Shown in pieces: positions 24,001 through 52,700 of a DNA stretch of 64,000 nucleotides. The translations under genes were made by a program, and so were the position numbers. Position 1 is the stretch's first letter; each line of letters opens with the position of its first letter. The notes beneath the pieces were generated by a model. The model ran no database searches, was not told the DNA's origin, and saw nothing but the letters and a program-made list of their open reading frames with translations. Source of the DNA: an uncultured Planctomycetales bacterium (lineage in GTDB: Bacteria > Omnitrophota > Gorgyraeia > Gygaellales > Profunditerraquicolaceae); assembly GCA_964545575.1 (NCBI GenBank), contig CAZJFL010000001.1:221812-285811 (forward strand), in the 5' to 3' direction.

Positions 24001-27000
24001 ACACCCTCCGCGAAAGCTGGGCGTGTTCAGAATTATCTATATTGATAGTCCTGCTAAAATTATCCAGAACTGCCATGCGATTTTCTCCATCCGGCAGGAA
24101 TTGCAAACATTCTCTGGCGATATCATCTTCGTGTTCTTCCAGTAAATAGAAATAAAGGTTGCGGATTCCTTCCTCCGTATCCCTGATCGCCTCGCCATTA
24201 TCATCGCTTAGGCCTTTAACGATGTGGCTGATGAGCTCATGATACAGGATTTCGATTTGTTTGGCTTCGGGAAGGCTAAAGAAATACGGATGGAAATATA
24301 CGGTCTTGGAGGCAATATTGCATACGGCGACGTGGACTTTGTCGCCTACAGTAAAGTAAGGTTCGAAGTTAGTGACAATCAGCTGCCAGTCAGATAACTC
24401 CGGCGGCGCGCGGCCAAAAAACTGCTCCAGCAATTCTAAGGCCTTCCTCATCATATCTTCATCCCGGCTTCCTAATCTGGAGCCTTTAAGCGATGGAACG
24501 CGGAAACCTTCTCCCCGCGCCGCATACCAGAGATTAGGACGGAAGTTACGCTGCCGTTCTAGAAAATCCCGGGGCACTTCTAGCGGATGGGCGTTGGGTT
24601 CATCGGCATCCTTTACTTCTTTATTAATGACTACCCCTGAATCTTTCGTTACTGTACCAACTACGCCCCCGACTTTTCTTGCCAAAACAACCTGACCACC
24701 CTGCGCTGCTAAATCCTCGGCAGCCTCTGTTATATTTCTTCTTGCCACTCTTAAGTCTTTTGCGTTCCTGGTATAGCGCATTACCTGGCCCTCTTCATCG
24801 ATGGACTGGCCTGTTTCATCTACCATATCTTCTAAATCATCAATGGCATTACGCAACGCCTCTTTATCATGTGCCACTGCCAACAGGTATTGCGCCAGGC
24901 TTAAGCCTTTAATCCTGGCGATAGATGCAGAAATCCAGGGAGCGCTCAAGCCCACAGACTGCCTGTCACCCTCTACTAACTCTAATCTGACGTAACCACA
25001 CTGATATTGGCGCAGCCTGGCGAAACTTGCGCTCAAGCTGGCAAGGGAATTTATGAATTCCTGCTTTTCTTTGTCCCCGTAAGTATCAAGATCCAAAGCC
25101 GCTAGACCGCAGGCAGCCAGATGTATTCTCTTTAACACAGCCTTTTCTGCGTCAGAAAGGCGCTCATAAATCCCAAAAAGCTGTCTTCTATATTCCATCT
25201 TGTAGCAGGAAGCATCATTAGCTGCTCCGCCCCGCGCTCTAAATTCACCTTCGCTATAGATAAGACAACGCTGCATATCCATATTTCCGTAATGCTGGGG
25301 TTTATTCTCATCATTATCCTCGAGCAGTTGCGCAGTGGCATTACTGACGCCTAATTTGCTCAGCCGCCTATTTAACTCATCCCTGTAGCGAGAAACCTGC
25401 ACCCTAGAAAGATTCCCCTGATAATACAGGGTGAGCCGGTCGATATCGCAACCTACCATCCATAAGCCCAGATTAAACGAGCAAAGCATCGAGCTTATCT
25501 CGCTGATCCTCGCCCCGGTCTCGCTTTCTAATTTCTGCATAAAATCTTTTAAGGCAGCTATGATCGCCTCTGTGCCTTCGGGAAATCCGTATTCGCTCTG
25601 CGCTACTACATCACCGTTATCTACCGACCCGCCGTTGTCGCGGGAGCCGTTGTTAGAATCACTATCCCGGCGTTCTAACGAAGCGATGTAATCTAGCTTT
25701 CTCTGTATCTTGCCTGCCAAAGATGGCTGGAGCCTTACTACTTCTACCCAGTCCGCCCTGGTCTCGCTAAATTTTCCTAAGATAGCATGGGCATTACCGC
25801 GATTATAAAGTGCCTCAATATCTTCAGGATCTATTTTAAGTGCTGAGCTAAACCAATTGACGGCTTCACTAAACTCGCGCGCTTGCGCATAGATAATCCC
25901 GGTATTCACATGGGCATCGAGATTCTGCTGGTCCAATGCAATCGTCTGGGAATAATCGGAAAGGGCTTCCTTGGTATAGCCATTATCTAAATAGCTTAGC
26001 CCCCGGTTAAAGTATACGTTTGGATTTTGTGGATCAAACCCTAAAGCCCGGTTAAAGCAATTTAAGGCATTCTTAAAATCTCCTGCCTTAGAATATCTGA
26101 CACCCATTTTATCTAACACAGTGCAAATTAGGCCATCTTTATCCATTAACCTGATACGCCGATGCATATCTGTGACTCTGCCTAAATTAGAAAGATACTG
26201 ACTGCCAGACTCAGCCTTAAACTCATCTTCTAAGACAAAAATATGGCTTACTTTATGATATGCTAAATCTACCAACGCCTTCATATTGTTAGCAAGATTA
26301 AGTAATATGGCTACATGCGAAACCCGCTTGCCCCATATGTTTACGGTAATACTGATGGGGATTACCGTTAAGCCGACCGCTTTTGCGATGACAAAGAAAA
26401 GCTGGGTGAACCCTACGCAATCAGCCTTCCTCTGCTCAACTATATCTTCAAGATCAAACGCGCTTGCTTCTTCCATATCGGATTCTATTGCGGGATTAAG
26501 GGTATCGAAAATCTTTGCTGCGACCTTCACTTCCGCGCGAACTTTCCTTTCTTCGTTGCCACTTTGCCTTACATCCTCAAGCAAACCTTTAAGCTCCAAA
26601 ATATCTATCCCTAAGCTATCTAAAAACTCTCCTATGCTCTCGGATACCCTCTGGGGATTATCTATGTAACTTAACTCCTCAAGCTGAGCACGAAGTAATT
26701 TTTGCGCTCTGACCCTTGCTGTATCATCTAAAGAGCCGCCGTTGTCCACCGAGCCGGCGCTATCGCGGGCAGAACATGCCAATAAGGCTGCTCCCACCAA
26801 TGCCGCATCTACCATTTCTTTTACTTTTGGAATCTCATCGGCTAATATCACAACAAAATCATAGCTTTTATCTGTAAGTTCTTTTTGCAGTGCGGGCAAG
26901 GCATACCGGCGCGCCGGCTTACTTAACAGCCACCCTCCCAAAATAAATATGCTTGTTCCTTTCACGTCCTGCCAGAACTGAGCTTCTAAGCGAGGCTCTT

Positions 27001-30000
27001 TGACTACTCCTTTTCTGGGTTCTCCCTGCACGCCTCCTTCATAAGCCATAATCATAGTCCTTGCAATGGCTTCTCCCGCTTTTTGATAATAACCCCGTGC
27101 TATATCTCTTGCTTCCAAGTCTTCGCTTTCCGTCAACTCAGATATAAATTCTCCGGTTAACGCCTCAGCGCCAAATTTATGGAATAAATATTCGTTCTTC
27201 TTTGCTTGATATTCAAATCCTTTACCAGTTGCCAAATCTTCCGGTAGTAAGCATCCCGGGATTACCCTACCGCCTTCGCCTTTTTCTAAGATTATATCGA
27301 AGAACTGTTGCGGGCCCGAGATAGGTATTATTTGGCCATTCCTGATAATAAAAGCTCCTGCGCCAAAGCCGCTACCCGGAATAAATCCGGAAATTTTTGC
27401 GCCTTCCTTAACTACTTTTCCTATTTGTGTAAGGCTCTCTTTATAGACTAAAAGGCAATGCGCCATAGCTAAAACATGCGCCACTCCATCATTATTAACT
27501 ACCGCACGCCATTCAGAATTTGTTATCCTAGATAATTTTTTGGATAACTCCTGCGCTAATGTAAAATTCTCCAAGTCCGGCACATTAGGACTCGTTCCAT
27601 GGTAAGGCACGCCTTCTTCCAGCCAAGCCCCGGGGGCAGATACGCCTATTGTTTTTATCAAAGGGTAATTGTATCTCTCTCTAATCTCTGAAAGGCCGGC
27701 CCGTAAAATCGTCACGATTTCTTCTAAGGTAGCTTCTATATCAGGGACTTCTTTTCCCCCTACAGTTTTTGTGGGGCTCTTTATAATTTTCGGGTCAAAA
27801 AGAAGCTCGGGAACGCCGATAATTCTTCCGTTAATTATTGACGCTTTTACAAATGCTACCCTTGCGTGAGTTCCTCCTATATCAATTACAGGGATTATTT
27901 TTGTTGCGATATCCGCCAATGTTGTAAACTCGATATTTAATCTATGTTCAGTATAATCTAAGATGGCCTCGCTTTCCCGGATATCTTCCCACCCCAATTT
28001 AAATATTCTTCTTTCTCCCAATGCCTCAAAAAACTTCTGGCTTACGATAATATATAATTTTGCTGCATCGCCAATGGGGGCGCCGATCCAATACCTAGCA
28101 ACGCGGCTGCCTTTCTTATAAATAAAACCGAGGATGTGCGAGCCAGCTAAAGTCTTACTGTAACATTCTAGGGTATTAAATTCTTCTCCGGCATCATTGC
28201 TATTTCCTGTGGCTTCATATTCGAGCGATGTTTTATCCCCGTCATCCATAAGGGTAAATGTAAAGTGCGCTTCTATAGCTGGACTAAATTTTTTGTTTCT
28301 GAAGTGGCCAACGTATTCAAAAGACACCGCACCCTCACTCTTTATCGCCACATCTTTACCATCTTCAGAATCCCAATTGCTACCCAAAGGAATAAAACGG
28401 TATCCGTCATATCTGCTATGCCTACGCATAATCTCTTCTTGATGATCTTTGTCTATCGGGTTTCTCTTCCCCTCCGCGCCGAAGGCGGTATCGCAGGAAC
28501 CGCCGTTGTCCACCGAGCCGCCGGTATCGCGGGAGGACCCCGTCCTTAAATAGGCCTTATTTACATCCTGCACCCAGATAATATCGGCTTCCTTATTTAT
28601 AAATCCACGGAGATCCTGAAACTGGAATTGCTCCGAGGTAAATTCATTTATGACTTCGTCCACAGTTTTTCCTCTGGCTAATTCTTTGGCTAATTTGCGC
28701 TCAAGCCTGACCTTAGAATCCTCAAAGGTTATGGCTATCTTCAGGTCCAATAATTCTGTGATTCTCCGGTCTTCGGCTAATTTAAAAGTTCCGGAAATAA
28801 TAAATACATCTAGGTCCATAGCTATACTTCTACCTTCCATCTCAAAAGGACTTCTTTGATTAACTTTTATTAAAAGGTCCCTTATAATAGCTAAAAATGT
28901 TCTGTATTGGGGATCCTGAGGACCTATAAAAGCATCGAAGACTTCGGAACCTATATTTACGGATACCGCCTTGATACCGGCGGCATTCAAAGAAGAATCT
29001 AAATGGTCTGTTAATGTCTTTTTGCCGGAACACGGAAGACCGAATATTCCGATGATTAAAGGCCTCTTTGTGAGCTTCGGTATTAAATCCAATAACATCG
29101 CGATGAAATGCTCATCCTGCTGATCTTCGGACCCACCGTTGTCCACGGCGCCGCCGTTGTCCACCGAGCCGGCGTTGCCGCGGGTCATGAATAATTCTAA
29201 TCTCAAATCATATTTCCAAACCGCCTCTTTCATAACCCCGAAGAATTTAAAGGCAGCCTTAAATATGCCTCTTAAGTCAGTAGGATTCTTCAGGAAAACA
29301 GACAGTTGCGGATTAGCAAATAAAAGATACATTGGCTTACCAGTAGCTATCTTTAATTCAGGAATCTCTGTGGCGGGTTCAGCAAATCTTATCACTGCAG
29401 GATTACCATATCTGGGATTAAACTGTATTGTAATCTTGCCTTTCTCATTCCTTATAATATGGTATGCGTAGCCCCTGCGTGACTCTATTTCGCTTGAATC
29501 AGTCAAGACCTCGGGAGATTCAGTAATGCCTTCTTTGCCTCCGACCTCGCGGCAAATCCAGTTAGCTATCACCAAAGGCGCGTTGCCTCTATTGATTACA
29601 CGATGGGAATAATTAGGATTGATCATTACCTTTTCCCCCTGCTTGGCAAAGGTAATGATGGCTTCAAACCGGCAGGTTTCCGGGTTAATTCCCTGCTGAA
29701 TGTAAATAGCCTCACCATACCAGACCTCACATACCTCAGGATAGATATCTCCCTTTACAGAAATTGGATTTTGGTGCCCTCTAGTCATGATAAACTCAGG
29801 ATCCAGCTCCTTATTGATTACCCCGGGCAGCAGGACGATAAGATCAAATCTTATATTATTCTTCTTAATAGCCCCTCTATCGGATTTCAGGCCTACGTCG
29901 CGGTAGCCATAATAAACCACTCTGTCCCGCTCCTGCTTTGCTACTTGGGGCTCAGCGATGCTGTAGGCAATATCTTTAAGCGTCCGGCTCCATTTACCCT

Positions 30001-33000
30001 CAGAGGCAACCTCTTCGCCAAGTGCGATTTCGCCGGTGGCCAAATCAAGGGTTACCGGCAGGCCGGCAAAACCGGAAAGGTCAACCGCCTTGCTGGCCGA
30101 CCCGCCGTTGTCCACCGAGCCGCCTTGACCAGCTTGCAATTGCGCTCTTATTTTATCTGTTTTAAGCCCGCCCTTTAGCGGCCTTCTGGCTTGGTGACCT
30201 AAATCCGCAAAGGCACACGGCACGATCAGGCTCTCGTCTAAATCAAAGATCCTGGCTATACTAAGGCCGATTTGATATCTGCTGAGCTGTTGCGGCCCGC
30301 TGATATGATAAATGCCGGATGCGTTCTGCGCGATCAACCGCTCTATCGCATCGGCTAAACACCCCACCGCTATAGGATTGGTGTACATATCGTCAGCCAG
30401 CCTGATCTGGCGGCCCTGGCGACAAGCGCCGGAGACTTGTGCCGTAAACTTTGAGCCTAAGCCCAAGATCAGGGTCGGCCTGATAATCAAATAATTAGAG
30501 CGCGTATAGCGGATGGATTTTTCCGCATCTAATTTTATTCTACCGTACTCATTCACAGGAATAGTAACATCACTTTCTGAATAAGGCCCGTTTTCTCCGT
30601 CAAAAACATAATCTGAAGAGATGAATACAAGCTTGGCGCCGATAAATTTACTTATTTCAGAGATATTCTCTGTGCCTAATACTTGTATTTGAAATACTTC
30701 TTGGGGGTGTTCCTCGCAATAATCTATATCTACCATGGAAGCTGCGTGAATAACCACCTTAGGCCGTAATTTGGTTAATAAAGCGCGCACTGCCTTTGCA
30801 TCTCTTACGTCCAAGAAATAACCATTGTCAACTTTATTTCGATAGTATGTCCCGCTGGTCTTATAACCGGCTGCGGATAATTTACGCATCAGTTCCTTGC
30901 CAAGAAACCCTGACGCACCGATCACTAATATATCTACAGCTTTAGCCGTCTCTACCTCCTGCTTCAAGACGCCTTGAGATTCCAGGAATTCAGCAAGCAA
31001 CATAGTGCCGATAGCATAATATGCCAAAGAGTGCCTGCCGGTAGGATCCTGGCTGAGGCGGTTTACAGCATCGGCAATAAAATGCGTGGCTTCGGCAAAA
31101 AGCGCTTTGGCTAACCAGTCCGGCTCATCTTTTAAGAGTTTATTCAGCGTAGAATGATGAGCCAACAGCCCGGGCAAAGCAGCTCTGGCTTTCAGGAAAT
31201 TCGCAACTGCAGACTCGCTATCCCAGTATCCAAGCTCCATACGGAAATCCTCGTCTTCCTGCCAAATTCCTAATTCAAAGCGGTTATTGCGCACCAATTC
31301 CAATAAGATTGAATGCAGTATCTTGCCCAGCTCATAAGTAATATCTATCTGCGTAGGTATGCTGCGAGGTAAATCTACTCCGCGGATGTCTATCAGGCGT
31401 AAGGCTCCTCCTTCTGTCCTTAACACATTCCTTAATAATAAATCTCCGTGGGCGTAACGCGGGATAAAGCCCGGTTTTAATTTCTCTAATAACCCCGGCT
31501 GGGATTTCAAAAGAGCAAGCAGACGGGGTAAATTCGGATATTTTCTGCCATTGATATAAATATTTCTTGCCGCGAATAAATCCTCAAATAAATACGAAAT
31601 ATCCCTGTATCGATTGTTTTGTATCGTAATTGCCCTGTCTTTTATCAGGCGGCTGTAGGTAGCGGTTGTCCTATCGGTAAAGAGGCCCAGGCGGTAATCC
31701 ATCCTCTTTAGATGAATCCTATCTACGTAATCTTGGGGAACTTCTAACCTGCCTTGAGAATAAACAAAATCGCAAAGTAAATCTAGAAGACCGGATATCG
31801 TCTCTAAAAACTCTTCTGCCGCGGTAGGCGGATGATTAAGAAAATAGAAAGGTAAAGGTTCTGCATTCTCGATATATTGAGATGTGTAAAATACATAGCC
31901 CTCGCCTTCAACATAATCATAAACTTCAGGAATCAAAACTTCCGCCTCAGTAGGTAAAGTTTCTTTTAATTCCTTCAATCTCTTGTATTGGGCTTTTAGC
32001 CACGCTACACCATTGGCGCCGATGCCTTCCCAGTCAGAATATTTTAATATTACTATTCTACCCTCGCCATCTCTTACCAGGAAGGTCGTGGCTGAACTTC
32101 CGCCGTTTCTGATAACGTCTAAAATTTCGTAATGCTGCGTAACCTCCGGAGGCAGGCGCTCAGATAAAGCGTTTCTATTTCTAAACCCGTGGTAGACGCT
32201 TCCACCGTTATCCACCGAGCCAGTGTTGTCCACTGAGCCGTCTGAAATAACCGGCTTTTCATTTCTCGCAGGCGCAAATATCGCTCTTAATCTCTCGATG
32301 GCCTCCTGAGGGCTTAATCCCTGATTATTATGCAAAACATACGTTCCGGATATAAAGATACCGGCGCCTTTTTTGATCGCCTCAATGATCGTTTCCCCAT
32401 TAATGCCACCCTGAACCATAACCGGCTTAAAGAACTCCCTTGCCCGTAGCTGGTCAATCTTAGCTAAAGCTTCTAACTCAGTAGTACCGCCTATCTTGGC
32501 AGTAGGTATTGCGGAAACTACTATGCGGTCAACTTCGGATAATATTTCTTCCGGAACCGCGCTTATCTGCTCATCCGGCTCAATCACTACGCCTGCTTTT
32601 ATGCCGAGGGATTTCAGGTAGCGAATTCTCCTTAAAAGCCTTGCCTTATCTCTTCCAAAGGCGTCAAACTGCAAGTTGATGCTTCTGACTATACCTGTTA
32701 CCGCAAATGCCCTCAGGTACTTCTTAGATGGCTGCCAAGATAAGAGATGCACATCAAAAGGAAAATCCACACCTGCCAAGCTCATCTTCTCGATTAACTG
32801 CGGATTAAATTGGGCGGTGTTATCGGGATATTCGGTATTAGCATTTTCTCTGCCGGTGCGCTCAAAATAGGCGTTGGAGCGGACATCAAAATGTATCCCA
32901 TCTGCACCTGCCTCCTGGAGTATAAGGGCGGCACCAATTAAAACCTCATCGCTTACTTTACCCAATACTGATAGTGGCACATAAATTTTATAATTTGACT

Positions 33001-36000
33001 GGCCGTAAGCATCGGTGACAACGGTTAAATCCGGCCGCACTGTTATTGTCTGCAGATAATGTATAAAGGAAGGAGTATTTATCCTCCAGAATACCTCCGC
33101 CACCCTATCAATAGGCGAATGCCGGGCATCGCGCGGCAGGCGGCGCAAAATGCCCACCGAGGGCTTAGCCAACATCAGGATCTTTAAATCAAAATACCGG
33201 CTATATTTTCTGGTCAAAAGGTAATTCCCTTCAATGATGACCACAGTGGAGCGGTCAATGGTAATTTTTTCTTTGTGCGTTAATCCACCTCCCTCATATT
33301 TATCATAAAGCTCAGTTAAATCCAGGGTTAGGCTTTCTTCTCTGCCAGCGTTAAATTGCCTTATTTTTCCCAGTGCTTCTTTTTCAAACTTCTCTGCCCT
33401 TAGCGAAATCTCGTTATCATTAAGGCTAAATCCCGTTGCCCCTATCCTGCTTAATTCCGCGTCTTGCCGGGCATATCTATTTTGGCGACTGTCAATAAAC
33501 CAGTCGCGGCTGATCACCACGGCTTTGCCGCCCGCTCTCCTGATTAATTCTGCAGCCTTTTCTGCGGCGGTGGTTTTAAAAGCCCCGGAGTTGCCGTCAA
33601 TGGCAACCACTAAAGCTCTTCCTTCTGGCTTTCTTGATAAAGCCGCGGTTATCGCGTTCACAATTCTGGCGATGTAATCAACCGGGCTGGTGACCACAGC
33701 ACTCAAACTGCTCACGCGCTGCTCATACTCTGCATCAAACCTATCTTGCTGCGCCTGGTAATTCTGCATGCAGTTTTTCTGATAAAAGCCCAGCGTCACC
33801 CACCCAATCGCCTCTTCAAAGAACTGCTGTAGTTGCGGGCCGGAATTCTCGTTGTCCAGCTCGATGTTTACGCCCCATTGCGCCTGTAAGCTTTGCTTCT
33901 TCAGTTTGGCTAAGAATGCACGGCACTTGGGGTCATCGATATTACCCAAAAATTCCTCTACTCCTTTTGCAGCCTTCAGTAGGACCCAGATATTGGCTAA
34001 TCTCTGCATCATCGTCAGTTCCCCAAAAGTATATTCCTCTCCCGGAACCGGAATATCGCGAATATACTTCCTGACAACTACAAAAGTCTCAAAGGCGCTT
34101 AACAGGCCGTCCTGAATCTGCTGGTGCTTCCAGTGCTGGCCATCCGGCTCCAGGACACAGGCGGTATCTAACCTAAGCAGTCTGCGGATCTCTTTTGCCC
34201 AATAGCGGCTGCAACCCAAGAACTGGGTATCTGAACCATAAACTAAAAGGTCAGCGTAAGTCTTATTGTAATCGGCAGCCAGGATTAAAAGACAGGCATA
34301 AACACAAGCAGCATTCTGCCTGACTTCCTCATAGGTAATACCTTTAAGCTCAGCCATTCTTCTAAGGAGCAAGTCAAATTTTCCCTGATTTAAACCGCCG
34401 CTTCTATAGGCATAACCGTAATCTAAGGTACCGCCCTGAAAACCGGCCCTGTATTCTTCGCCGGAAGAAGCAGCAGTTCTTAAGCTGGCTAATATTTCGC
34501 TCACGCCCTTGCCTTGGGAGCGCTTAGCCTTAAAATAAGGCACGAAGCCGCTGAGCACCGTATCTTTACTTACCCAGACGCCCGGCTCATCGGCAAAATT
34601 GACGCCCATGCGGTTTCCGGCAATGGCAATGCCGACATTAAACATAGCTACCAGCTGGCCGATTTCTTCTTTTGCGGGCAAGACTACTTCTATCACCGAG
34701 AAACCGCTCTGACGCAATCTCTCAATTCTGGCCTGATAGCGATTATCTTGGGGCCCTAGTTTAAAATGCACAAAGAAATTCCGCTGGGGCTTATAGTAAG
34801 CCGGCTCTAAATCTTCTTCCTCGCTTAAAATAACTGGGATAACACCTCTCCTGGTTCCCTGGGAATCTTTTTTACCTAAGGACTCGGCAGTAATCTGGCC
34901 AAAGAAAGTAGATAAAGCCTTTAATTCCTCGGGCAACACATAAGTAATATGGGTTTTGCCGTGCGTTTCCATAAAGGCAATGAGCAAGCCAAAGAATAAT
35001 CCGGGGTTAATGACAGTGTTGTCTTCGCCTAATATCTTGGGATTTTGGCAGATAGACATCATCTTTGCTCCGGATTCTGTTACTGCTTCTAACAGCCAAT
35101 CGCCTGCAAAAGCTGCAGGGACCAGGCCTGGCTCGGCAAAGAATGAAGCATAGCGGCCGCCTGTGGCTTGGTCATGGTCAATGACAGTGCGATAACATCT
35201 TTCCGGCTTTTCTGTGGTGCGCAAGACATCTTTGGCATCGCCGTCTTTCTCTTTAGGATCAGCCACAGCCACGAAGTGGCTGCCGGTTTTTGCTTTGTCG
35301 CCGCCGTAGAGATCCAGTAATTTCTGATAAAAATAATCTTTCAGTTTGGTGATCTCTACAGTCGTCCAGGACTTACTGATCACAAAGAAAACCGTATGCT
35401 CAAGGTCAAGCTTCTCTTCTAATTCCCGAATGACCTGCGGCTCAACCGAACCTAAGATATAAATATTTTGCAGGCCAAAGATGCCTTTTAAAGCCACCAT
35501 CCCATTACCGGAACCGCCAATACCTAAAATTACTCCTGTGGTCAGACCGCCTGCTTTTAATTCAGCGGAGAGCTTTGTTAATTCAGGGATCCTTGCTCCC
35601 TGGATACGGCTTAAGATATCCACCCAGCCTAAACGACTCTTATTGTCTATCCAGTCCTTCGTTACTGTATCCCACCAGGTAAGTTTTCCGGAGAATAACT
35701 TGGGAACCAAGCCTTCTCTTTCTGCCTGCGTTACATAATCTCTTAGGTCAACGCTCTCTTTATCGGATAAACGCAGTTTAACCTCTAAAAGCGTAGAGAC
35801 TACTGCGCTTAATCCGCCGTTATCATGGCTACTGGCTAAAGCTGTCCCTTCAGCTAATCTTTGTAATTGAGCGGCACAAGATGAGCAGAAACCTGCTGCA
35901 GTGCGGTCCAATTCATCTGCGCTATGGCTTAAATGCATTACGCAAGAAGGAACATTGCAATGCAGGCGTAATTCGGTAGGAATAATGAATAAGCCACCGA

Positions 36001-39000
36001 TAAGATGCCCTACTTCGTGAATAGCATTTTTGAGGTTACGGCTAATGAAGGTATCTCTATCGGGATGCTGGAACCTGTATGCAGAATTGATAATGATATT
36101 TTTGGAGGGGTTGGTGCGGCCAAAAAGATAATTATATGCCTTACCGTCTTTACACAGGCCGGTAATATCTGCTTCGGTAATAACAAGAGTGGGGATTTTC
36201 TGTCTGGCGCCTTTAAAGAAATAAGGAAGTACAAATTGCTTGCGCTTTGCATCATAATAACCACCGATATTACTGACGATATCTTCAAATTTTACAGGAG
36301 AATCAATTATGACGTTTATATTGAAGGGGAATGCCTCGGTTATTCCTTTGGCAATCAACTGGGCTAATTCTATAACGGTATCGTGCCCTTGTTCTGTCGC
36401 GAAAGCAGGAATAATCTTTAAGAAAGGCGGAGCGCGGGAGGAATAAGGCAACCTCTCTACAGAAGCCATAATACCGCTTTCATCTCTTGGCGCTACGCCG
36501 CTTGGCTCCAGAGGCACATCCGCAAATAAGCCACCGTTGTCGCAAGAGCCGCCGTTATCAAAGGCACCTTCTAAATTAAACCCGCGCGTAAACCTGCGGA
36601 TAGATTCTTTGATCCTATCGATTACGTATTGCTGGGGATCTTTTACTCCGGATTCCCTGGCCTGAGCGTAAAGCTCCTGGCGCGCGGCTCTCACTCTCTC
36701 ATTATTCTGCACATAACGTCCGCAGCCTAAAACAACCTCCCGAAGCTGCGCTTCTCTTAAGCTGGCGATATCCTCAACCCCGGGGAACCATTTCCTCCAT
36801 CTTTCTGTTCCGCATAAAGCCTCTTCTACGATAGCTAAAAATCCACCTTTACCTGTTAGTTGTTCCAACTCCTCTAAGGCCAAGTATTCTTGGCGGGAAA
36901 ACTCCGGCCCTACATTTGCACAGGCTATCCCTGCCCCGGGCACCAGCGCCAGTTGCTCTTCTTGCATATAGTCAGAATTATGCTGTTTAAGATGTAACCC
37001 GTACCTAGCTGCCAAGTTAAAAAGCCTGACTACGCCCTCGGTATGGAATGTACCGAGCTGGTGGGAATCCAACACCTGGGTACCGGTATCAATAACCAGG
37101 TAAACTATGTTCGCCCAAACATAGTCCAACCCTTTCTCATCCAGTTTCTCCCGCAATAACCTTATATACTCTCCTACTGCATCCGGAGAATCCAGGACAC
37201 TGCCGGAGATGTCAGAACCGACCTCGTAAACAACCGGCGGCATATTCTGCTCTAACCGGTAAGCCTCACAGTCAGAGATTAAATCAACGGCCCTTTCCAC
37301 CATCTCGCCGATACTTACCAACGAGCCTTTCTTCTCGTAATCTAAAGTTACGTCTATATGGAGAATATCAAAGCCGGCATCTAAATCAGCGCGGTAGGTG
37401 CGCTTAGCATTTGCCATAGCTTGGCCTAAAGATAATAATTTATCTTGAGGCCTCTGCCAAGGGCCACCGTGGTCTCGCTCAATGAATACGCGCCCGCTAT
37501 AACCTACCTCAGAGGCGATTCTGCGGATTATAGTTACCAACTCTGCCTGGTTCCACCCCGTATATGAGCCTTCCACGTCAACCTGCCTTGGAGTAGCGAT
37601 AAATATAGGAATACAACCGTCTTCTTTTGCGACTTCAAGATAAGCCCTGATAATATCTTCGGACATCGGACAGACAGCAAGCAGCGTCATTTTCTTGCCC
37701 CTCTTGGCTTCCTGGCTTTTTACCTGTGCCCACATCCTAACAGATGCGCTCAACTGCGCATATTTGTCTAAAAATTCATTGACCAATATTACACTACGGA
37801 TATAAAATGCTTTTGCCCTTCTCTGGTCATGAATCCGCGTTAAAACATACCCGGCGAAATTTAAAGCGCAAATCAATTGCATTCTAAGCTGCCAATAGGG
37901 CTCGGTCTGGGAAAGATATGCTTTTACGCCTGACTTTGCTAAAATATCCTGGAACCTCTCCTCTAGCGCCTCGAACGCTTCCCATAGATAGCTCTCCTTG
38001 GCAAAGGAGAAATCAACGACGGTATTATCGCCTTGACGTATAGCTAAAGTATAAAGGCCTTTCTCCAATAGATAAAATTTACCGAATATGCCTTCTGCCA
38101 GCTTGCTTAAGTCATAGACTAAATCTCCCCGCTCATCCCCTCTGGGGTCAACAAATAAGAACTTGCTTCCTTCGGTCAGAATATTATGTAAACCCAGGTC
38201 GCCGTGATTAATACACAATGATAATGGATTAAGCAAAAGGAATAACTCCGGATTATCCTCCCATTCTCTTAATATGCGGGGAAGATTCCTGTACTTAGTG
38301 CCATTTATAATTAAATATTCGGACTGTAATAGAGATTGAAGATACGGCGCCCGCCTTAAGGCTTCTTCCAACCTGCTTCCCACCTTATCTAAGGTTATCC
38401 CCTTGAGATAACCGGCAGGGGCTTTAGCCTTGCTATCCGATACAATATCTCTCATATATGCGCTTAAGACATCCTGGATAATGCCACATGTTTCTTCCAT
38501 TGCCAGAGAGCCTTGCGCTATTCTATCGGCTAAGCTCTTAGCCTGCGAGTAATAAGGCATCTCATAATAAACATTCCCCTGCTCCAAGGAATAACTTAAC
38601 ACCCGCGGGAAATACCCTTGGAGCCTATCAGGTAGGTCCAAAATCCATCTTATCTCTCTTATCAAATCCTCTTCTGCGAATTCATACGCCTCTTTGCGAA
38701 CTATATATTTACCCTCTCTGTTTATAAGTAAAACTCTAGAGCAGGATTTACGCTCTATCACTCTTGCTATCTCTTTACGGGATACCCGGCGGGATGGGCC
38801 TACATAAGCAGAGCCGAATCTTTGAATTTCGGCTACTTTTTGTTTAAGGTCAGGGGCTTTTGAAAATATGCTTCTGGCGTTGAAAGAATCCGCCCCTGCC
38901 TCTACGACTCTTTTATAAGTATCTTCGGTAATGCCTCCGTCTATTTCTATGCTTACCCGGATATTCCTTTGCTGTATTAATCTTTTTAAGCTGCGTATCT

Positions 39001-42000
39001 TCTCTGTCATCCCGGGAATAAATGTGCGCCCTCCGCCTCCGGGCACAACGCACATAATCATTACCGTCATCATTCTGGCATCGAAATACCGCCAGAGGCT
39101 ATCTAAAGCAGAAATCGGGGTTTCCGGATTAAGAGAAACGCCCAGATATAAATCTCTCTGTTTGATATAATCGATCATTGCTTCCGCCTCGCCCAAAGAA
39201 GAAAAAGCCTCATAAGGCAATATAACTTTGTCTCTTCCGGGCTTTAACCCGGCGTTTATTAATCTATCTATCAAAGCTTTATCCGGATTTACTGCCCAAA
39301 GGTGCACATCCAGCGGCAACCCTATGCTGGATATTATCCTGATATCATCTGCGCAGTCCAAGATATCGCCTTGAGTCAACTTCCCGTCAAAATGGTCTAC
39401 GTGCACAGAATCCATGCCACACTCTTTAACCTGCTCAATTTCCTTTCTTAAACCGCTCTTATCCGCGTAGAGTATAGAATATGCCAGTGACAGGGAGCCG
39501 CCCTTACCGAGAAGCTTGACTGAAGCCCGCTTGATCTTATAGGCCTGGTAAGCTTTAGCAAAGTTATGGACCTTGGCCTGCCAGGGGTCTTTGCGGACGA
39601 TATCCGTAGTATCCAAGAAATCACCGGCAATAAGGAGGCTGAGCACTTCGTCTTTATCTAGTAAGGGGTTGATATCTTTGACAAATCTTTCAAAGGCAGC
39701 CTCGTCCGGCTGCAGTTGGGATATAGAATAAAGGGCGCTATGAAGCCTTATTACTTCTATCAAAACATCCCTGCTTGATAAATCTTTAGCTAATTCTGGG
39801 TTTTCTCTGAGCATTGCCGTTGATGCTCCGGCATGGTTTGGATACAGCTCGAGCATTAGTCCCTCTTCGGCAACTATCTGCGGCTTGATTCTGGACTTTC
39901 CGATATCATGCAGCAGGATGAAGAATTCGAAGAATAACCTGTTCCGCGGGTTAAATAATATGCTACGGTATTCCTGAGGTATGGATTGAAGGGCAGTGGC
40001 GGTATTTAGAGTATCGAGCATAACCCGGAGGTGGTCTATAAGTCTGGGCCCTTCGGTGTGTAATGGCAAAGGTAAATTAGGTATATCAAAACAATTATGG
40101 TATTCTTGAGACAAGCGGGTACAAATAAGAGCTCCTATATCGGTAGAACCACTCCTTACCTCTTCGCTGAAAGCAATGTCAAAGGCACCGCCGTTGTCCA
40201 CCGAGCCACCAATGAGTCCATCCAAATATTTATCCCATTTTGAAAAATCTATTCTTTCATACTGCCGCATCTTCCCGAAGAATAAGGTGGCTATCCTCTT
40301 AAGCGCTTCTTCGCTATAGCCCTCTGCGCGGCAGATTATCTTTGGTTCGGTTCCCGAGGCCCGCGCCAATGCCCAGCCATCGCTAAAAACAATCCTTAGG
40401 CCGTCGGTCTCATCGATATTATAATCTAATCTGCGGAAATACTCTTTGACCTCGCTGATAATGCGCTTCTTTTCTTCATTGGCATTATCGCCGGTCACGG
40501 TAAGACGAAACTCTCTGGTAGAAGGATAATGCGGTATTTCGTAAGCCGCAGCCTGGACGGTTGTGCCCTCTTTCCTTACCTTAGCCACAAAGCGCAATAA
40601 CTTAGCTGCGGTATAAATGCCGTCATCAATATTATGATTATCCGCAAAGAAGAAGTGGCCGGACTGCTCTCCGCCCATAATCGCGTTAACCTCTCCCATC
40701 TTCCTCTTAATATGGGAGAACCCTGTTTTCCATCTGATGGGCTTGCCACCGGCGTCTTTTACCACTTTTACTACCGCTTCCGTGCATTTGGCATCAAAAA
40801 CAACCGCCCTGCCGGGATTCTCTGCTAAGATGTCCCGGCTTAACATTGCTAAAATAATATCTCCGGAAACATCCTGCGCCATATTATCCACCACTACCAA
40901 CCTGTCAGCATCCCCGTCAAAAGCTAGGCCGATATCTTCTCCGCCTTCTCTTACCGCGTTAATCAGGCACTGCATATTTTCGGCTAATGTAGGATCGGGA
41001 GAATTATTTACACAATTCGGGAAATTGCCGTCGGCTACCCCGTTTATCAATCGCACTTGAGCGCCCAAAGCGGAAAATATTTTTGCTAAAGGCAGGGTGG
41101 CGGCGACGCCATTTAAAACATCAATCACGATTTTTAACCCGCTTAAATTCCCTGCTGCCTGAGATAATAAATCCGCATAGGCAGAAACCATATCTTTTTC
41201 TTCTATCTGGCCTGTGCCAGAGATAAAGCATCCGCTTTCTGCGATTTCGCGGATTCTCTTTAATTGCTCCCTACTGGTATTGACTATGCCTATGGTCGGT
41301 TTAAATCCGCCGTAATGGGCGGGATTATGACTTGAAGTAACCATAATGCCGGCATCAGCATTGTATAAAGGGACGGAATAAGAGAGCATCCCTGTAGAAA
41401 CAGTACCTAAATCAATGACTTTGACTCCGCTGGCTACTAATGCCTTAACCGTATCCTGATGTATTCTGGGTGAAGTAAGGCGGACATCATGCCCTACTGT
41501 TATCACTAATTTTCTCTTATTTAAAGCAGCAGCAGTAAAAGTAGCGAATGCTCTGGCTATGCGCGCGACCACATCCGTAGTCAATGTCTCCTCGGCATGG
41601 GCAGCGCGGATATCATTTTCCACAAAGATTCCGGCATCGACAGGCGCATATCCTAAATCTACCCATTGGCCGTCCGAACTCTCTATATTAGCCAATACTT
41701 GCTCTACTATACCTAAATACTCCTCTGCTGCCTTAGGCCCCTTATCCTTGGCGTTGATGAATAATCTGGAAGGTTTCTCCTCAGCAATATCCGGTCCGAC
41801 ATTAACCGTTGAATCCACCGCTAAAGCAGCTTCGCGGTCATTGCCTTGCGTATCAAACGAATCTCCGAAGAAGATAAAAGATTCTCTGCTTAGACCCAAA
41901 ATCTCTTCCGCTTTCCTAACCGCAAAGCCCTTATGTATTCCCGCCGGCAATATGTCAATAGCAGTCATCCCGGCAATTCTAATTTCCACCTCTATGCCTT

Positions 42001-49700: not shown

Positions 49701-52700
49701 ATAACTTCTTCGGTCCGCGATTTATCTAATCCGGCTTTCTCCAGGCCAACCCTTAACCCGTCCTCTTTTTGCAACTCCAACAGCGCCTGTAGTTGTGCAA
49801 AAGAATACCCCTGCCATACTTTATCATTCCAGATATCTTTAGGGTTAAGCTCTGTAGTAGAAACTATTCTGATTTTTTCTTGTGCGCCGTTGGCATTGAT
49901 AATCTTAACATCGCATGCCAACTGACCGGTGGTAATGGCTAACGGCTCTTCGCCTAACTCTTCCACATTCATTATCAGAGCTTTAGACTGAGCATCGATA
50001 TTCTTGATTACGGAATCGATAATAACGGTGCCTTTACGGACCGTGCCTTTATCAATGCGGCTCTTGCCCAGAATAATTACTCCGTCCTCAACCACGACCT
50101 CTTTGCCGAGTTTAACATCCGGGCCAACGATTGTCTTAGGCTTAAAGCCGCTTAAACCGACCAGGCAGCGTAAAATCTCTTCTTTAAAGAGTTGCTGTGT
50201 CGCCTGATAGTATCTTAAATTATCGCCTATCTCAGCCGAATAGGTGCGTCTTCCCGCCTCAAGGTAACCAAAGCTCATTTCGGCTTGCAAGACAGCGAGT
50301 ACTTTCAGCAAATCCTGATTCATATTCTGTTCGGTCTTAGTAATATCCGGACCTTGAGTCCTGCCGGGCTTAAGCAATACAGGTATGCTTCTGGCAGAGA
50401 AGTGATATACGGTAAGGTTATTCAGGGCAACTTCGGTTTTATCCTTGACATATTCTGCCTCTTCGGGAGAACCGCGCCTTAAAAGAGCGGTGATCCCATT
50501 TGTAGCGTCTAACTGCAATACGCCGTAATGCGCCCGGTCAGGAGAATTGACGCTTATGGTGGTCCCGACAATCTGTATATCCTGCCTGTCTACGCCGGTT
50601 AATGGCTCTGATATGGCAATCAGGCGATCAGTGGGCAACACCCATACGCCCGGTTGAGCAGCGCTGTAGAACTGCATACTCTGGCGCAATGCCTGAACGA
50701 GATTAGATTCTCCGTTAATGGAAGCGATCAAACCTTTGTTACCGCGGCCACTGGAGAGAGTGACGGGATAATTACGTTTTCCCTCGCCGCCGGCGAGAAT
50801 CACTAAAAGATTGGAGTGTTCGAAATCAAAACCGGCTTCCCTAAGCAAGTCCAAAGAGCGCAATAAGGCAGAAAGATTTCCGGGTATTGCTTTATTATTT
50901 ATGGGATAGATAAATACGGGAACTACCCCGGCTGCCTTCCTTTGAGATAAAGCTTCCTGCATCAAAGATATGCCTGAAGAATCTTTTGTAATGAGGATAC
51001 GCAGGTTATCCGGCAAGACCCGACCGGCTGCATCTTCGATAATTTGCCGGGTATAAGCAGCGGTTTCCCGGGTAGGTAAGACCAATACCGCATCATAATA
51101 ATGCGCGGAATCAAGCTGGGCTTCTTCGAGGTTGCGACGCTGGGTGCGCATTCCATAAAACGGAGTATCATTATAATAAGTAGTAACCTCTTCTTGACTG
51201 ATGCCCTCTGCGGCTAATATATCTGGGTGCACGTATTTTAAGGCCGCCAGATACATCGCGCCCACTGCCGGCCCAAAGGCAACCGAGAAGTTACCCTTGA
51301 ACTTTTCGCTGATTGCCTGGCCGAACTTTTTGGCGTAATCCGCTTCGGAAGCGATGGCAATCTTTACTTTTGCGGCAACCTGCGGAAATTCTTCTTTCAA
51401 AACTTTCTCTGCGGACTCTTTGACTATTTCTCCGGACCTGCCCATCATCTGGCCGCCAAAGAGTACAAGGTATTCCATGCGTAAATCCTCATAAGCATCA
51501 GCAACGGATATGGCTAAATACCTGCCGATGGTTTCAAACACTTTAATTGCTTTAGCATTACCTGAAGCGGCAAGCTGCTGTGCCCTCCAGGATCTAGCAC
51601 CATAATTATCTTCAGGGATAGCCTCACCTTTATCATCCTTATCCAGGCTTAAGCCTATTTCTTTAGCTAACCTTAAAACTGCGGCCTGCGGGATATATTG
51701 CTGGAGTGCACCTCTGAAACGTAATCCAAAATGCATCTCGGCTTTGGGATGAAAATCGATACTAACCTTGCTCATCTCGCCTAAGAAGTCGGACAAACCA
51801 ACGCTGCCTACATGGCCGCCGGCAAGGCCGGTGCCTACGCCAAAGACCGCGGCATTGCTGACACCAAGAGTAACTGCTGCAGATAAGGCAATCGCATCAC
51901 CGTCATTTAATACGCCTACGGGGATATTACCAAAGGCCTTGGAGATATGCTTGCTTAAAGGAGCGATTCTGGCCCAGAACTCTTCACCGCCGATATTCCG
52001 GAAGAGACGGGCTCCTTCCTGAACGATACGGCCCTCCACTACTGCGGCAGCCATACTTACTCCTACGGCATCTATTTTAACTATATTGATGCCGCAAGCC
52101 TCTACTGCTTTAATGAAGCTATTAATTTCTTTGAGGGTGGCGGTGCGGTTGGCTTCTAAGGTATCCAGCTGAGCACGCAACTGTGCATCGGCATTTGCCT
52201 GGCTGCGTACGGAGATAGCCGCCTGGGCAAACCTGATTAAAGTGACAAATACTTCCAAATGCTTATCTGCGCGATTTAAATTCTGAGGCAAGATTTCCCA
52301 GTTGTGGGCCTTGGTTAGAACAATTTGCCCGTCCTTTACGGCTAAGACCTTGATACTGGTGCCGCCGACATCCAAGGCTACGAAATTACCTTTACTGTAA
52401 TCAATGGTTTCCTGCTCCGCGGCTGCTTCTGTCGAGGTAACTTTAGTCCTGAAGGAAGCGATAGCTTCGGCTGTGGCGCGCAATAAAGCAAATGGCTTCT
52501 CATAAATACCGTTAAAATACATCAGCACGCGTTCATAACGGCCGCCCGGAAGGAGTATCTTGCTTAACTCCTGATAAACTGAATCGCTGGAAAGAATATA
52601 CATCTTGTGGGCGCCACAGCGATATAAGGTATTAATAATACTTAAAGCAATGTAATCGATAATCGCGGCGAATTCTTGCGGATTAATGCCTGCGGGAATC

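Follow-up and report, generated by a model that had tools for sequence, protein, structure and literature searches.

The 64,000-nt stretch of contig CAZJFL010000001.1 (assembly GCA_964545575.1, positions 221,812 to 285,811; hereafter the window), from an uncultured bacterium of the lineage Omnitrophota, lies within a single giant gene whose middle part encodes tiled enzymes of sugar metabolism, five families of which occur twice. Our analysis indicates that these pairs are ancient paralogues, comprising at least one independent capture and perhaps one ancient two-domain duplication, and none of recent origin. Overall, we consider it probable that this is the enzyme-rich part of an Omnitrophota-type giant protein, in which the pairs stem from repeated recruitment and shuffling of modules, or from very ancient duplication, and a short linker unit was copied between module junctions.

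A six-frame scan showed that the window is one minus-strand frame without stops, running from nt 64000 to nt 2 and open at both ends; the gene thus has at least 21,333 codons, and both of its ends lie beyond the window.

2-64000, minus strand: giant open reading frame (ORF), stop-free; six-frame scan

Residue i of the protein corresponds to nt 64000-3(i-1) on the minus strand, and the interval 26800-52420, singled out in a sequence-only reading of the window, to residues ~3861-12400. Some twenty modules with enzymes of sugar-phosphate and nucleotide-sugar metabolism follow one another here in a single reading frame. The giant ORF has 56 hydrophobic 19-residue peaks, clustered at aa ~1974-3470, 6542-6581, 13769-16050 and 18512-19430, and the enzyme region is flanked by predicted transmembrane clusters (Kyte-Doolittle hydropathy only). 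The interval is probably the soluble, enzyme-rich middle of one giant, membrane-anchored multi-enzyme protein. The conventional ORFs of at least 150 aa that were listed for the window (11568-12236, 22968-23543, 29603-30178 and 41559-42113; 184-222 aa) are all on the plus strand, antisense to the giant ORF, and are almost certainly its shadow ORFs.

The domain map was built by scanning 1,000-aa tiles of the protein, and each module separately, against Pfam and NCBIfam; it contains the following paired modules.

51317-52375, minus strand: ROK-family ASKHA kinase module 1 (ROK1), aa 3876-4228; PF00480 36.9 bits, cut-off 22.9; LDVGGT, NDGDA
46715-47398, minus strand: CofD/YvcK-like 1, aa 5535-5762; PF01933 53 bits; TIGR01826 44.6 bits; UPF0052/YvcK-like PDB matches
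42773-43873, minus strand: CofD/YvcK-like 2, aa 6710-7076; PF01933 75 bits; TIGR01826 67 bits; PDB 2ppv and others
38873-39487, minus strand: ribulose-phosphate 3-epimerase module 1 (RPE1), aa 8172-8376; PF00834 122 bits; NF004076 137 bits; HxD, DVHL, PGGGG, DGG
37721-38737, minus strand: APH-like (protein-kinase-fold) sugar-kinase-like module 1 (APH1), aa 8422-8760; Pfam APH 22.9 bits; HGDLGLHN, VDPRG; relatives at 30-62%
33026-33610, minus strand: PRK/uridine-kinase-like P-loop 1 (PRK1), aa 10131-10325; PF00485 31 bits; atypical Walker A GNSGAFKTT
32336-32917, minus strand: RPE-like module 2 (RPE2), aa 10362-10555; PF00834 51 bits; DGG Asp replaced (VQGGIN)
30935-32143, minus strand: APH-like module 2 (APH2), aa 10620-11022; BLASTP to APH1 E = 4e-13; Pfam APH 15.4 bits; HGDLLLRN, IDIRG
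28568-29101, minus strand: PRK/uridine-kinase-like P-loop 2 (PRK2), aa 11634-11811; PF00485 34.5 bits; TIGR00235 39 bits; PDB UCK1; GLPCSGKKT
26768-27913, minus strand: ROK-like ASKHA kinase module 2 (ASKHA2), aa 12030-12411; free-standing homologues, AlphaFold, Foldseek; IDIGGT, NDGVA, GSGFGAG, LGGW

The sequence-only reading had proposed these five twofold families (CofD/YvcK, RPE, APH-like, ROK/ASKHA and PRK/Udk P-loop) from motif pairs, which we located at aa 8599 (HGDLGLHNIL, nt 38206) and aa 10851 (HGDLLLRNVL, nt 31450), and at aa 8199 (VHVDHFDG, nt 39406) and aa 10369 (IHFDVRSN, nt 32896). All five proved real at the family or fold level, and neither profile analysis nor fold search assigned the members of any pair to unrelated families. 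Within pairs, identities were 21-33% and synonymous sites were saturated.

The CofD copies scored 53.4 and 75.1 bits against PF01933 (cut-off 30), matched PDB entries 2o2z, 2hzb and 2ppv, and aligned to each other at 29% identity over 265 residues; both are far under the TIGR01826 cut-off of 196, and are thus divergent members. The RPE copies scored 122 and 51 bits against PF00834 (cut-off 21.1). RPE1 retains every catalytic and metal-binding motif, as do the phosphohexomutase, HAD, RmlD and M54 modules and both APH modules for their catalytic motifs; RPE2 keeps HxD and DVHL, with Gln in place of the Asp of DGG (VQGGIN) and a degenerate PGxGGQ loop, so that it is a family member by sequence and possibly no epimerase. 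Against Pfam APH (PF01636), the two APH copies scored 22.9 and 15.4 bits, both under the cut-off of 23.2, and matched each other at E = 4e-13; the HGDxxxxN catalytic loop and the downstream metal-binding Asp are present in both. Because homologues at E <=1e-40 do exceed the cut-off (P0012, 35.6 bits; P0015, 35.4; P0004, 33), APH1 and APH2 may be assigned to APH by transitivity through the shared family. The P-loop copies reached 31.2 and 34.5 bits against PF00485 (cut-off 22), and both have a non-canonical Walker A motif: GNSGAFKTT, with Phe for Gly, and GLPCSGKKT, with Lys for Ser/Thr, as compared with the canonical GxxxxGK[ST]. RPE2 and both PRK/Udk-like modules may therefore be pseudo-enzymes or re-purposed.

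ASKHA2 had no sequence match in Pfam, NCBIfam or the PDB, the last searched both with the single sequence and with a profile (a PDB sequence search with APH1 likewise returned nothing useful). An AlphaFold model of ASKHA2, built with 18 homologues, had a mean confidence (pLDDT) of 87.8, and its top Foldseek matches in the PDB were ROK kinases (N-acetylmannosamine kinase, E = 1.8e-13, probability 1.0), with a target-normalised TM-score of 0.74-0.75 to the ROK hexokinase 3vov. Additionally, the phosphate-1 DxGGT, NDG and glycine-rich phosphate-2 motifs occur in both ROK1 and ASKHA2. Taken with the model, ASKHA2 is predicted to be a ROK-like ASKHA kinase fold. Smith-Waterman scores compared with shuffled sequences gave z values of 29.7 for APH, 10.5 for RPE, 8.3 for CofD, 3.7 for P-loop and 2.5 for ASKHA, and below 1 for three mismatched control pairs, indicating that the P-loop and ASKHA pairs are related at the superfamily level only.

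For ASKHA2, free-standing genes of 388-392 aa match 97% of the module at 57-58% identity; they are annotated as 'predicted NBD/HSP70 family sugar kinase' (JGI) or, in Candidatus Aminicenantes, 'ROK family protein' (NCBI). ASKHA2 nests inside the diversity of this free-standing family, and a profile of the family did not match ROK1 significantly (hhalign E = 0.11). Judging from these comparisons, ASKHA2 was evidently captured from, or has recent ancestry with, a free-standing gene, and was not copied from ROK1. ASKHA2 is as long as the whole of these ~390-aa sugar kinases and has a predicted ROK-kinase fold; unlike them, it is internal to the giant ORF, preceded by an unrelated segment of ~190 aa and followed by a linker. 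The free-standing homologues sit in ordinary gene neighbourhoods. We also considered whether an operon had been fused, but none of the neighbours of the free-standing ASKHA homologues resembled modules of the giant protein.

For RPE1+APH1 (M1), 7,765 matches were obtained when 1.84 billion representative sequences were scanned in full with HMMER; 150 of these matches were listed and used for comparisons. RPE2+APH2 (M2) scored 58 bits against M1, under all 150 listed matches (91-591 bits), and when M2 was the query M1 ranked only 32nd among those same listed matches. Conversely, the M1 relatives P0001, P0002 and P0003 showed 45-62% identity. For RPE1 alone, the relatives were P0003 at 55%, P0001 at 49% and many other large proteins at 35-41%; altogether, RPE1 and APH1 have relatives at 41-62% in other large proteins, as compared with ~22-29% to RPE2 and APH2. 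RPE2, in turn, matched RPE1 at only ~12 bits, as compared with 59 bits for a free-standing RPE of 225 aa. Neighbour-joining bootstraps for the two copies as an exclusive clade were 15% for APH and 9% for RPE; from these trees, sister status of APH1 and APH2 appears unsupported, and we do not claim an independent origin for them. The similarity of the CofD copies to each other (37.7 bits) is no greater than that of either copy to YvcK-like structures from Firmicutes (35-42 bits). A word-indexed search for homologues of RPE1+APH1 came back empty, which reflects a limit of sensitivity and not absence, since HMMER then found the relatives described above, including the one at 62%; the word-indexed search gave no matches for PRK2 either. 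These results do not bear out the earlier proposal that the pairs show growth by duplication and divergence, since the ASKHA, RPE and APH copies have closer relatives elsewhere. The tested copies neither are mutual closest relatives nor retain residual synonymous similarity, as recent intragenic duplicates would.

Growth by fusion, also proposed in the sequence-only reading, was supported both by the end-to-end similarity of ASKHA2 to free-standing genes and by a cassette shared with a protein whose flanks are unrelated. The latter is a 3,170-aa ORF (P0001) on metagenome contig Ga0172377_10000225 (locus L009), which is 49% identical to residues 8169-9138, spanning RPE1, APH1 and the GatZ-like module. 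The homology ends at aa 9138, ~6 residues before the linker at aa 9145; P0001 is devoid of the GSVDNG motif, and its flanks and the neighbouring 2,938-aa ORF are unrelated to the giant gene. Locus L009 is an array of large genes and not one giant gene: ORFs at 250-9066 (2,938 aa) and 9395-18907 (3,170 aa) are followed by a further frame that stays open for over 940 aa. Two other proteins share parts of the order: P0003 (585 aa) has RPE followed by a GatZ-like domain without APH, and P0014 (3,446 aa) has HAD-PMM followed by RPE without the phosphohexomutase or a linker. Compared with the giant gene, P0003 and P0014 correspond to in-frame gains or losses of modules between lineages. For ASKHA2, the start of the linker at aa 12411 coincides with the end of the free-standing proteins. 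Together, these boundaries indicate that modules behave as exchangeable cassettes and that linkers mark cassette ends in this gene; many module junctions nevertheless have no linker, including RPE1/APH1, APH1/GatZ, APH2/RmlD and PRK1/RPE2.

The linker unit is 18 nt long, GGCTCGGTGGACAACGGC, encodes GSVDNG and occurs in 11 in-frame copies between aa 5979 and aa 12797, five of them exact (starting at aa 7932, 11294, 11611, 11828 and 12416) and six with 2-4 mismatches. The unit, usually preceded or followed by a degenerate one, is found at nine junctions:

46031-46066, minus strand: linker aa 5979-5990, GSVDNG GSYDTG; core with 2 mismatches
40172-40207, minus strand: linker aa 7932-7943, GSVDNG GAFDIA; exact 18-mer
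36533-36568, minus strand: linker aa 9145-9156, GAFDNG GSCDNG
32186-32239, minus strand: triple linker aa 10588-10605, GSVDNT GSVDNG GSVYHG, between RPE2 and APH2
30098-30121, minus strand: linker aa 11294-11301, GSVDNG GS; exact 18-mer
29129-29170, minus strand: double linker aa 11611-11624, GSVDNG GAVDNG GS; exact 18-mer in the first unit
28484-28534, minus strand: linker aa 11823-11839, SRDTG GSVDNG GSCDTA; exact 18-mer
26720-26770, minus strand: linker aa 12411-12427, ARDSA GSVDNG GSLDDT; exact 18-mer
25610-25648, minus strand: last linker aa 12785-12797, GSRDNG GSVDNG D, just beyond the interval

GSVDN, with nine copies, is by far the commonest pentapeptide of the giant protein, and the 18-mer has no copies in other frames or on the opposite strand of the window. 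The near-identity of the linker DNA is confined to a core of 18-26 nt, beyond which identity decays to chance over one or two codons except where the peptides also resemble each other; the linkers on either side of the ASKHA2 cassette (28484-28534 and 26720-26770) share 44 nt at 86% identity. At the RPE1/APH1 junction (38800-38815, minus strand; aa 8396-8401) the peptide GSAYVG (GGC TCT GCT TAT GTA GGC) aligns with GSVYHG, the third unit of the triple linker, and may be a decayed unit or a coincidence.

The contrast between near-identical linkers and divergent domains, noticed in the sequence-only reading, withstood the comparison of synonymous positions which that reading had proposed. Identical residues of paired domains used the same codon in 33-42% of cases, as compared with 34-37% expected from codon usage, whereas for seven GSVDNG units 81% was observed and 37% expected. 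Monte Carlo sampling under either codon model (200,000 draws) never gave five or more of seven units with one shared codon string. The linker codons TCG, GTG, GAC and AAC are non-preferred and GC-ending, with gene-wide usages of 9%, 22%, 30% and 34%, and their excess persisted after conditioning on the following residue (dipeptide context); GC content at third codon positions (GC3) is 100% in the linker core and 46% gene-wide. The codon test and the simulations thus indicate that the asymmetry is real and that conservation of the peptide alone does not explain it. The same reading had suggested that the linkers were homogenised or acquired later; of these two possibilities, later acquisition gained some support, from the 49% cassette of L009 that has no linker and from its homology ending ~6 residues off. 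Cassettes S7-S9 (25631-29137, minus strand) have the lowest GC3 of the ORF (0.415, 0.386 and 0.427, as compared with 0.44-0.54 elsewhere), which weakly suggests that these three, which are small and have identical linkers at their borders, arrived later.

The linker peptide was present in none of the 150 listed relatives of RPE1+APH1, a 20-mer of the linker gave only eight single matches in 185,579 species representatives, all in GC-rich genomes and as expected by chance, and the 18-mer had no match in IMG/VR. In the large relatives P0009 and P0015, repeated 5-mers considered as possible linkers turned out to be HEAT-like repeats. By inspection, an RTX, EF-hand or dockerin-like calcium motif did not fit the spacing, and a two-quartet G-quadruplex or an internal GTG start left the choice of GAC and AAC unexplained, with no convincing Shine-Dalgarno sequence.

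The remaining modules of the enzyme region are as follows.

49931-50710, minus strand: nucleotidyltransferase-like and hexapeptide-repeat segment, weak, aa ~4431-4690; PF00483 20.3 bits, just under cut-off; weak glgC/GlmU matches
49373-49573, minus strand: NUDIX, aa 4810-4876; PF00293 33.6 bits, cut-off 21.1
44258-44377, minus strand: predicted transmembrane hairpin within the enzyme region, aa 6542-6581; Kyte-Doolittle hydropathy only
41795-42523, minus strand: HAD-type phosphomannomutase-like, aa 7160-7402; PF03332, PF08282; DMDET
40286-41629, minus strand: alpha-D-phosphohexomutase, PGM/PMM domains I-IV, aa 7458-7905; PF02878/79/80, PF00408; TSSHNP, DGDADR, GEQSG, RASGTEP
36587-37714, minus strand: GatZ/KbaZ-like, aa 8763-9138, end of cassette S3; PF08013 77.8 bits
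35858-36142, minus strand: archaemetzincin-like peptidase M54, aa 9287-9381; PF07998 53 bits; HEVGH, HCx4CxM, CxxC
34556-35542, minus strand: phosphoglucose isomerase (SIS), aa 9487-9815; PF00342 34.6 bits; NF007080 match
30137-30934, minus strand: RmlD-like reductase, aa 11023-11288; PF04321 186 bits; GxxGxxG, YxxxK
29540-29935, minus strand: cupin-type glucose-6-phosphate isomerase, aa 11356-11487; PF06560 76.6 bits
aa ~12636-12757, minus strand: TPR; Pfam/NCBIfam scans

The M54 module directly follows one linker and is itself followed by a degenerate linker-like sequence, SSHDNGG, at 35819-35839 (aa 9388-9394); it might be the protease that processes a predicted polyprotein. Outside the interval, the giant ORF also encodes pyruvate phosphate dikinase domains (PPDK_N, PEP-utilizers and PEP-utilizers_C; 1004-3766, minus strand, aa 20,079-20,999), an ARMT1-like damage-control phosphatase (22826-23638, minus strand, 135.6 bits), a Fic domain (20924-21241, minus strand, 51.9 bits) and an enolase C-terminal-like segment (11417-11692, minus strand, 58.2 bits).

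Giant proteins of Omnitrophota, the 'Archaeovorins', reach 30,000 aa or more, with many transmembrane regions, embedded proteases and PGI, PGM/PMM, PPDK, TPR and NUDIX domains, among which the PPDK type is frequent (West-Roberts et al. 2023, bioRxiv 10.1101/2023.11.21.568195). A 2026 preprint (10.64898/2026.06.07.730766) describes a class of 'multi-enzyme metabolic clusters', proteins of 10,000 aa or more; in its data, the same Pfam occurs two or more times in 65% of the long Omnitrophota proteins with Pfam matches, and these repeats were judged old because nucleotide similarity had dissolved. The gene described here has more than 10,000 codons, numerous predicted transmembrane regions, and tiled sugar-metabolism Pfams together with PPDK, NUDIX and TPR. 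It resembles those proteins in its single huge ORF, transmembrane clusters and tiled enzymes (PGM/PMM, PGI, PPDK, NUDIX, ROK, HAD, TPR), as well as in having Pfams present twice or more without nucleotide similarity and an embedded protease domain. Conserved linkers are not mentioned in either paper, neither of which contains the word 'linker' (bioRxiv 10.1101/2023.11.21.568195; 10.64898/2026.06.07.730766). The frozen-codon GSVDNG junction is what is new here; pairing of enzyme families is in itself ordinary for this class.

Many-module polypeptides that evolve by module exchange are also known from polyketide synthase and nonribosomal peptide synthetase (PKS/NRPS) megasynthases, which have inter-module linkers, and from viral or bacterial polyproteins, which have conserved cleavage junctions. 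By analogy, the giant gene would share with them its many catalytic modules and short conserved junction sequences; unlike PKS/NRPS, it has no carrier-protein, condensation or ketosynthase domains, and its modules are ordinary enzymes of primary metabolism. APH1 and APH2 belong to one family with bifunctional nucleotidyltransferase + APH-like (~590 aa) and RmlD + APH-like (~645 aa) proteins (27-35% identity, E down to 1e-45). The fusion of APH2 with an RmlD-like module has counterparts in P0012, P0011, P0015 and P0024, but in the order APH-RmlD here and RmlD-APH there, and among the relatives found an APH-like kinase after an RPE-like module occurs here and otherwise only in the related P0001 cassette.

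We favour an explanation in which most of the pairing arose as cassettes of the same enzyme superfamilies were recruited repeatedly and shuffled, at least one of them coming from a free-standing gene; duplication would have contributed at most at a very ancient date, and not recently within the gene. The borders of cassettes would be marked by a hexapeptide linker specific to the lineage, (G-S-V-D-N-G)n, whose unit was most likely copied between junctions, either by recent spread as cassettes were joined or by homogenising short-patch recombination. Because the soluble stretch contains ATP-dependent kinases, and its sole internal membrane element is a two-helix hairpin, it would face the cytoplasm. 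The protein might then work as a membrane-tethered metabolic chain, in which paired modules have different specificities and RPE2 and the atypical P-loops have non-catalytic or altered functions.

Several observations weigh against this explanation. L009, at 49%, was the sole locus found in a protein-pattern scan of JGI metagenomes, leaving one cassette-sharing relative with usable flanks. The finding of relatives closer than the partner covers three of the five pairs (ASKHA2, RPE1, RPE2, APH1 and APH2). In the neighbour-joining trees, which are poorly resolved and unstable at the divergence of these pairs, both RPE copies group in one clade with the RPE domains of large proteins, where RPE2 branches at the base. 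Membership of the multi-enzyme Omnitrophota class is suggested by architecture alone, and SecA-like, HEAT and glycosyltransferase domains were absent from the 21,333 aa scanned, the gene running past both ends of the window. Finally, there are signs of duplication inside the gene. RPE1-APH1 and RPE2-linker-APH2 are collinear, at 29% identity over 552 residues, and a very ancient duplication of the RPE-APH unit is possible on this evidence. A unit of ~1,000 aa is duplicated in tandem at 10403-16504 (minus strand), where aa 15,833-16,785 align with aa 16,928-17,866 at 22-25% identity (Smith-Waterman z = 42) and include transmembrane helices and the enolase-like segment; this is the sole clear in-gene duplication of the window and lies outside the interval, but it belongs to the same ORF, and in-gene duplication therefore does occur here.

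The main alternative for the frozen linker would be selection on its codons or mRNA, in the form of a slow-codon run (TCG GTG GAC AAC) favouring co-translational folding or, for the peptide, a protease processing site. We regard it as doubtful, although conceivable, as the cause of the linker's nucleotide identity. It would agree with the four central codons all being minor in this gene, also in their dipeptide context, with linkers lying exactly at cassette boundaries, and with the first unit of a linker being frozen while the next has ordinary codon usage. An M54 module with intact HExxH and Cys signature placed directly after a linker is in keeping with processing, and post-translational cleavage of giant proteins has been proposed (West-Roberts et al., bioRxiv 10.1101/2023.11.21.568195). 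However, rarity alone does not explain the use of GTG over the equally rare GTC, or of TCG over TCA, many junctions and the 49%-identical cassette elsewhere do without the linker, and pausing and cleavage here are purely hypothetical.

It is unlikely, in our assessment, that the gene grew largely by internal duplication and divergence of modules, with its linkers kept alike by concerted evolution (gene conversion). Besides the ~1,000-aa tandem duplication (aa 15,833-17,866), this explanation draws on the five true family or fold pairs, the RPE-APH order common to both copies, linker codon identity far over expectation and the 44 nt at 86% in the linkers flanking ASKHA2. Against it, ASKHA2 is 58% identical to free-standing genes and not significantly similar to ROK1, M2 ranks below the 150 proteins listed for M1, RPE2 is nearer a free-standing RPE, and sister relationships have no bootstrap support. 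Furthermore, the pairs are scattered and not in tandem, self-BLAST of the 64 kb detected only weak similarity within pairs and no recently duplicated cassette, and the 18-nt identity is sharp-edged, without flanking homology, and short for ordinary gene conversion. An artefact, in which mis-assembly or chimeric joins at a repeated k-mer produced the long ORF or the repeated 18-mers, is extremely improbable even though neither the GTDB representatives nor the JGI metagenomes scanned contained the contig for a comparison of assemblies, because 64 kb free of stops in one frame is impossible by chance, every linker has the same frame and strand, 18-26 nt is far under assembler k-mer or overlap sizes, and codon usage and Pfam-positive domains continue across the junctions.

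With copying of the unit between junctions as the preferred origin of its identity, the linker peptide probably acts as a flexible hinge, and it may also be a site at which the embedded archaemetzincin-like protease cuts; the hinge, copying, selection and processing-site roles are compatible with one another. A more speculative idea, which we rate as quite improbable, is that the 18-nt, GC-ending GSVDNG unit serves as an in-frame adapter or recombination joint through which free-standing enzyme genes, and cassettes of other large genes, are captured, deleted and reshuffled within giant ORFs without breaking the frame, while its peptide might provide a cleavage or hinge site giving a processed or flexibly tethered metabolon. 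If true, this would explain how giant genes grow, and the 100% GC3 of the linker would be a trace left by biased gene conversion where recombination is frequent.

Giant bacterial genes have been discovered only recently, and the window offers one example of a module evidently captured from an ordinary gene, with 58% identity from end to end, and one of a cassette also present in a large protein that is otherwise unrelated; each of these homologies stops at a short linker of defined sequence. According to West-Roberts et al., the analysis of giant proteins is hampered by the lack of known cleavage or boundary points (bioRxiv 10.1101/2023.11.21.568195). The GSVDNG junctions are candidates for such boundary or cleavage points in this lineage, and may offer a handle on whether these genes grow by cassette recombination.

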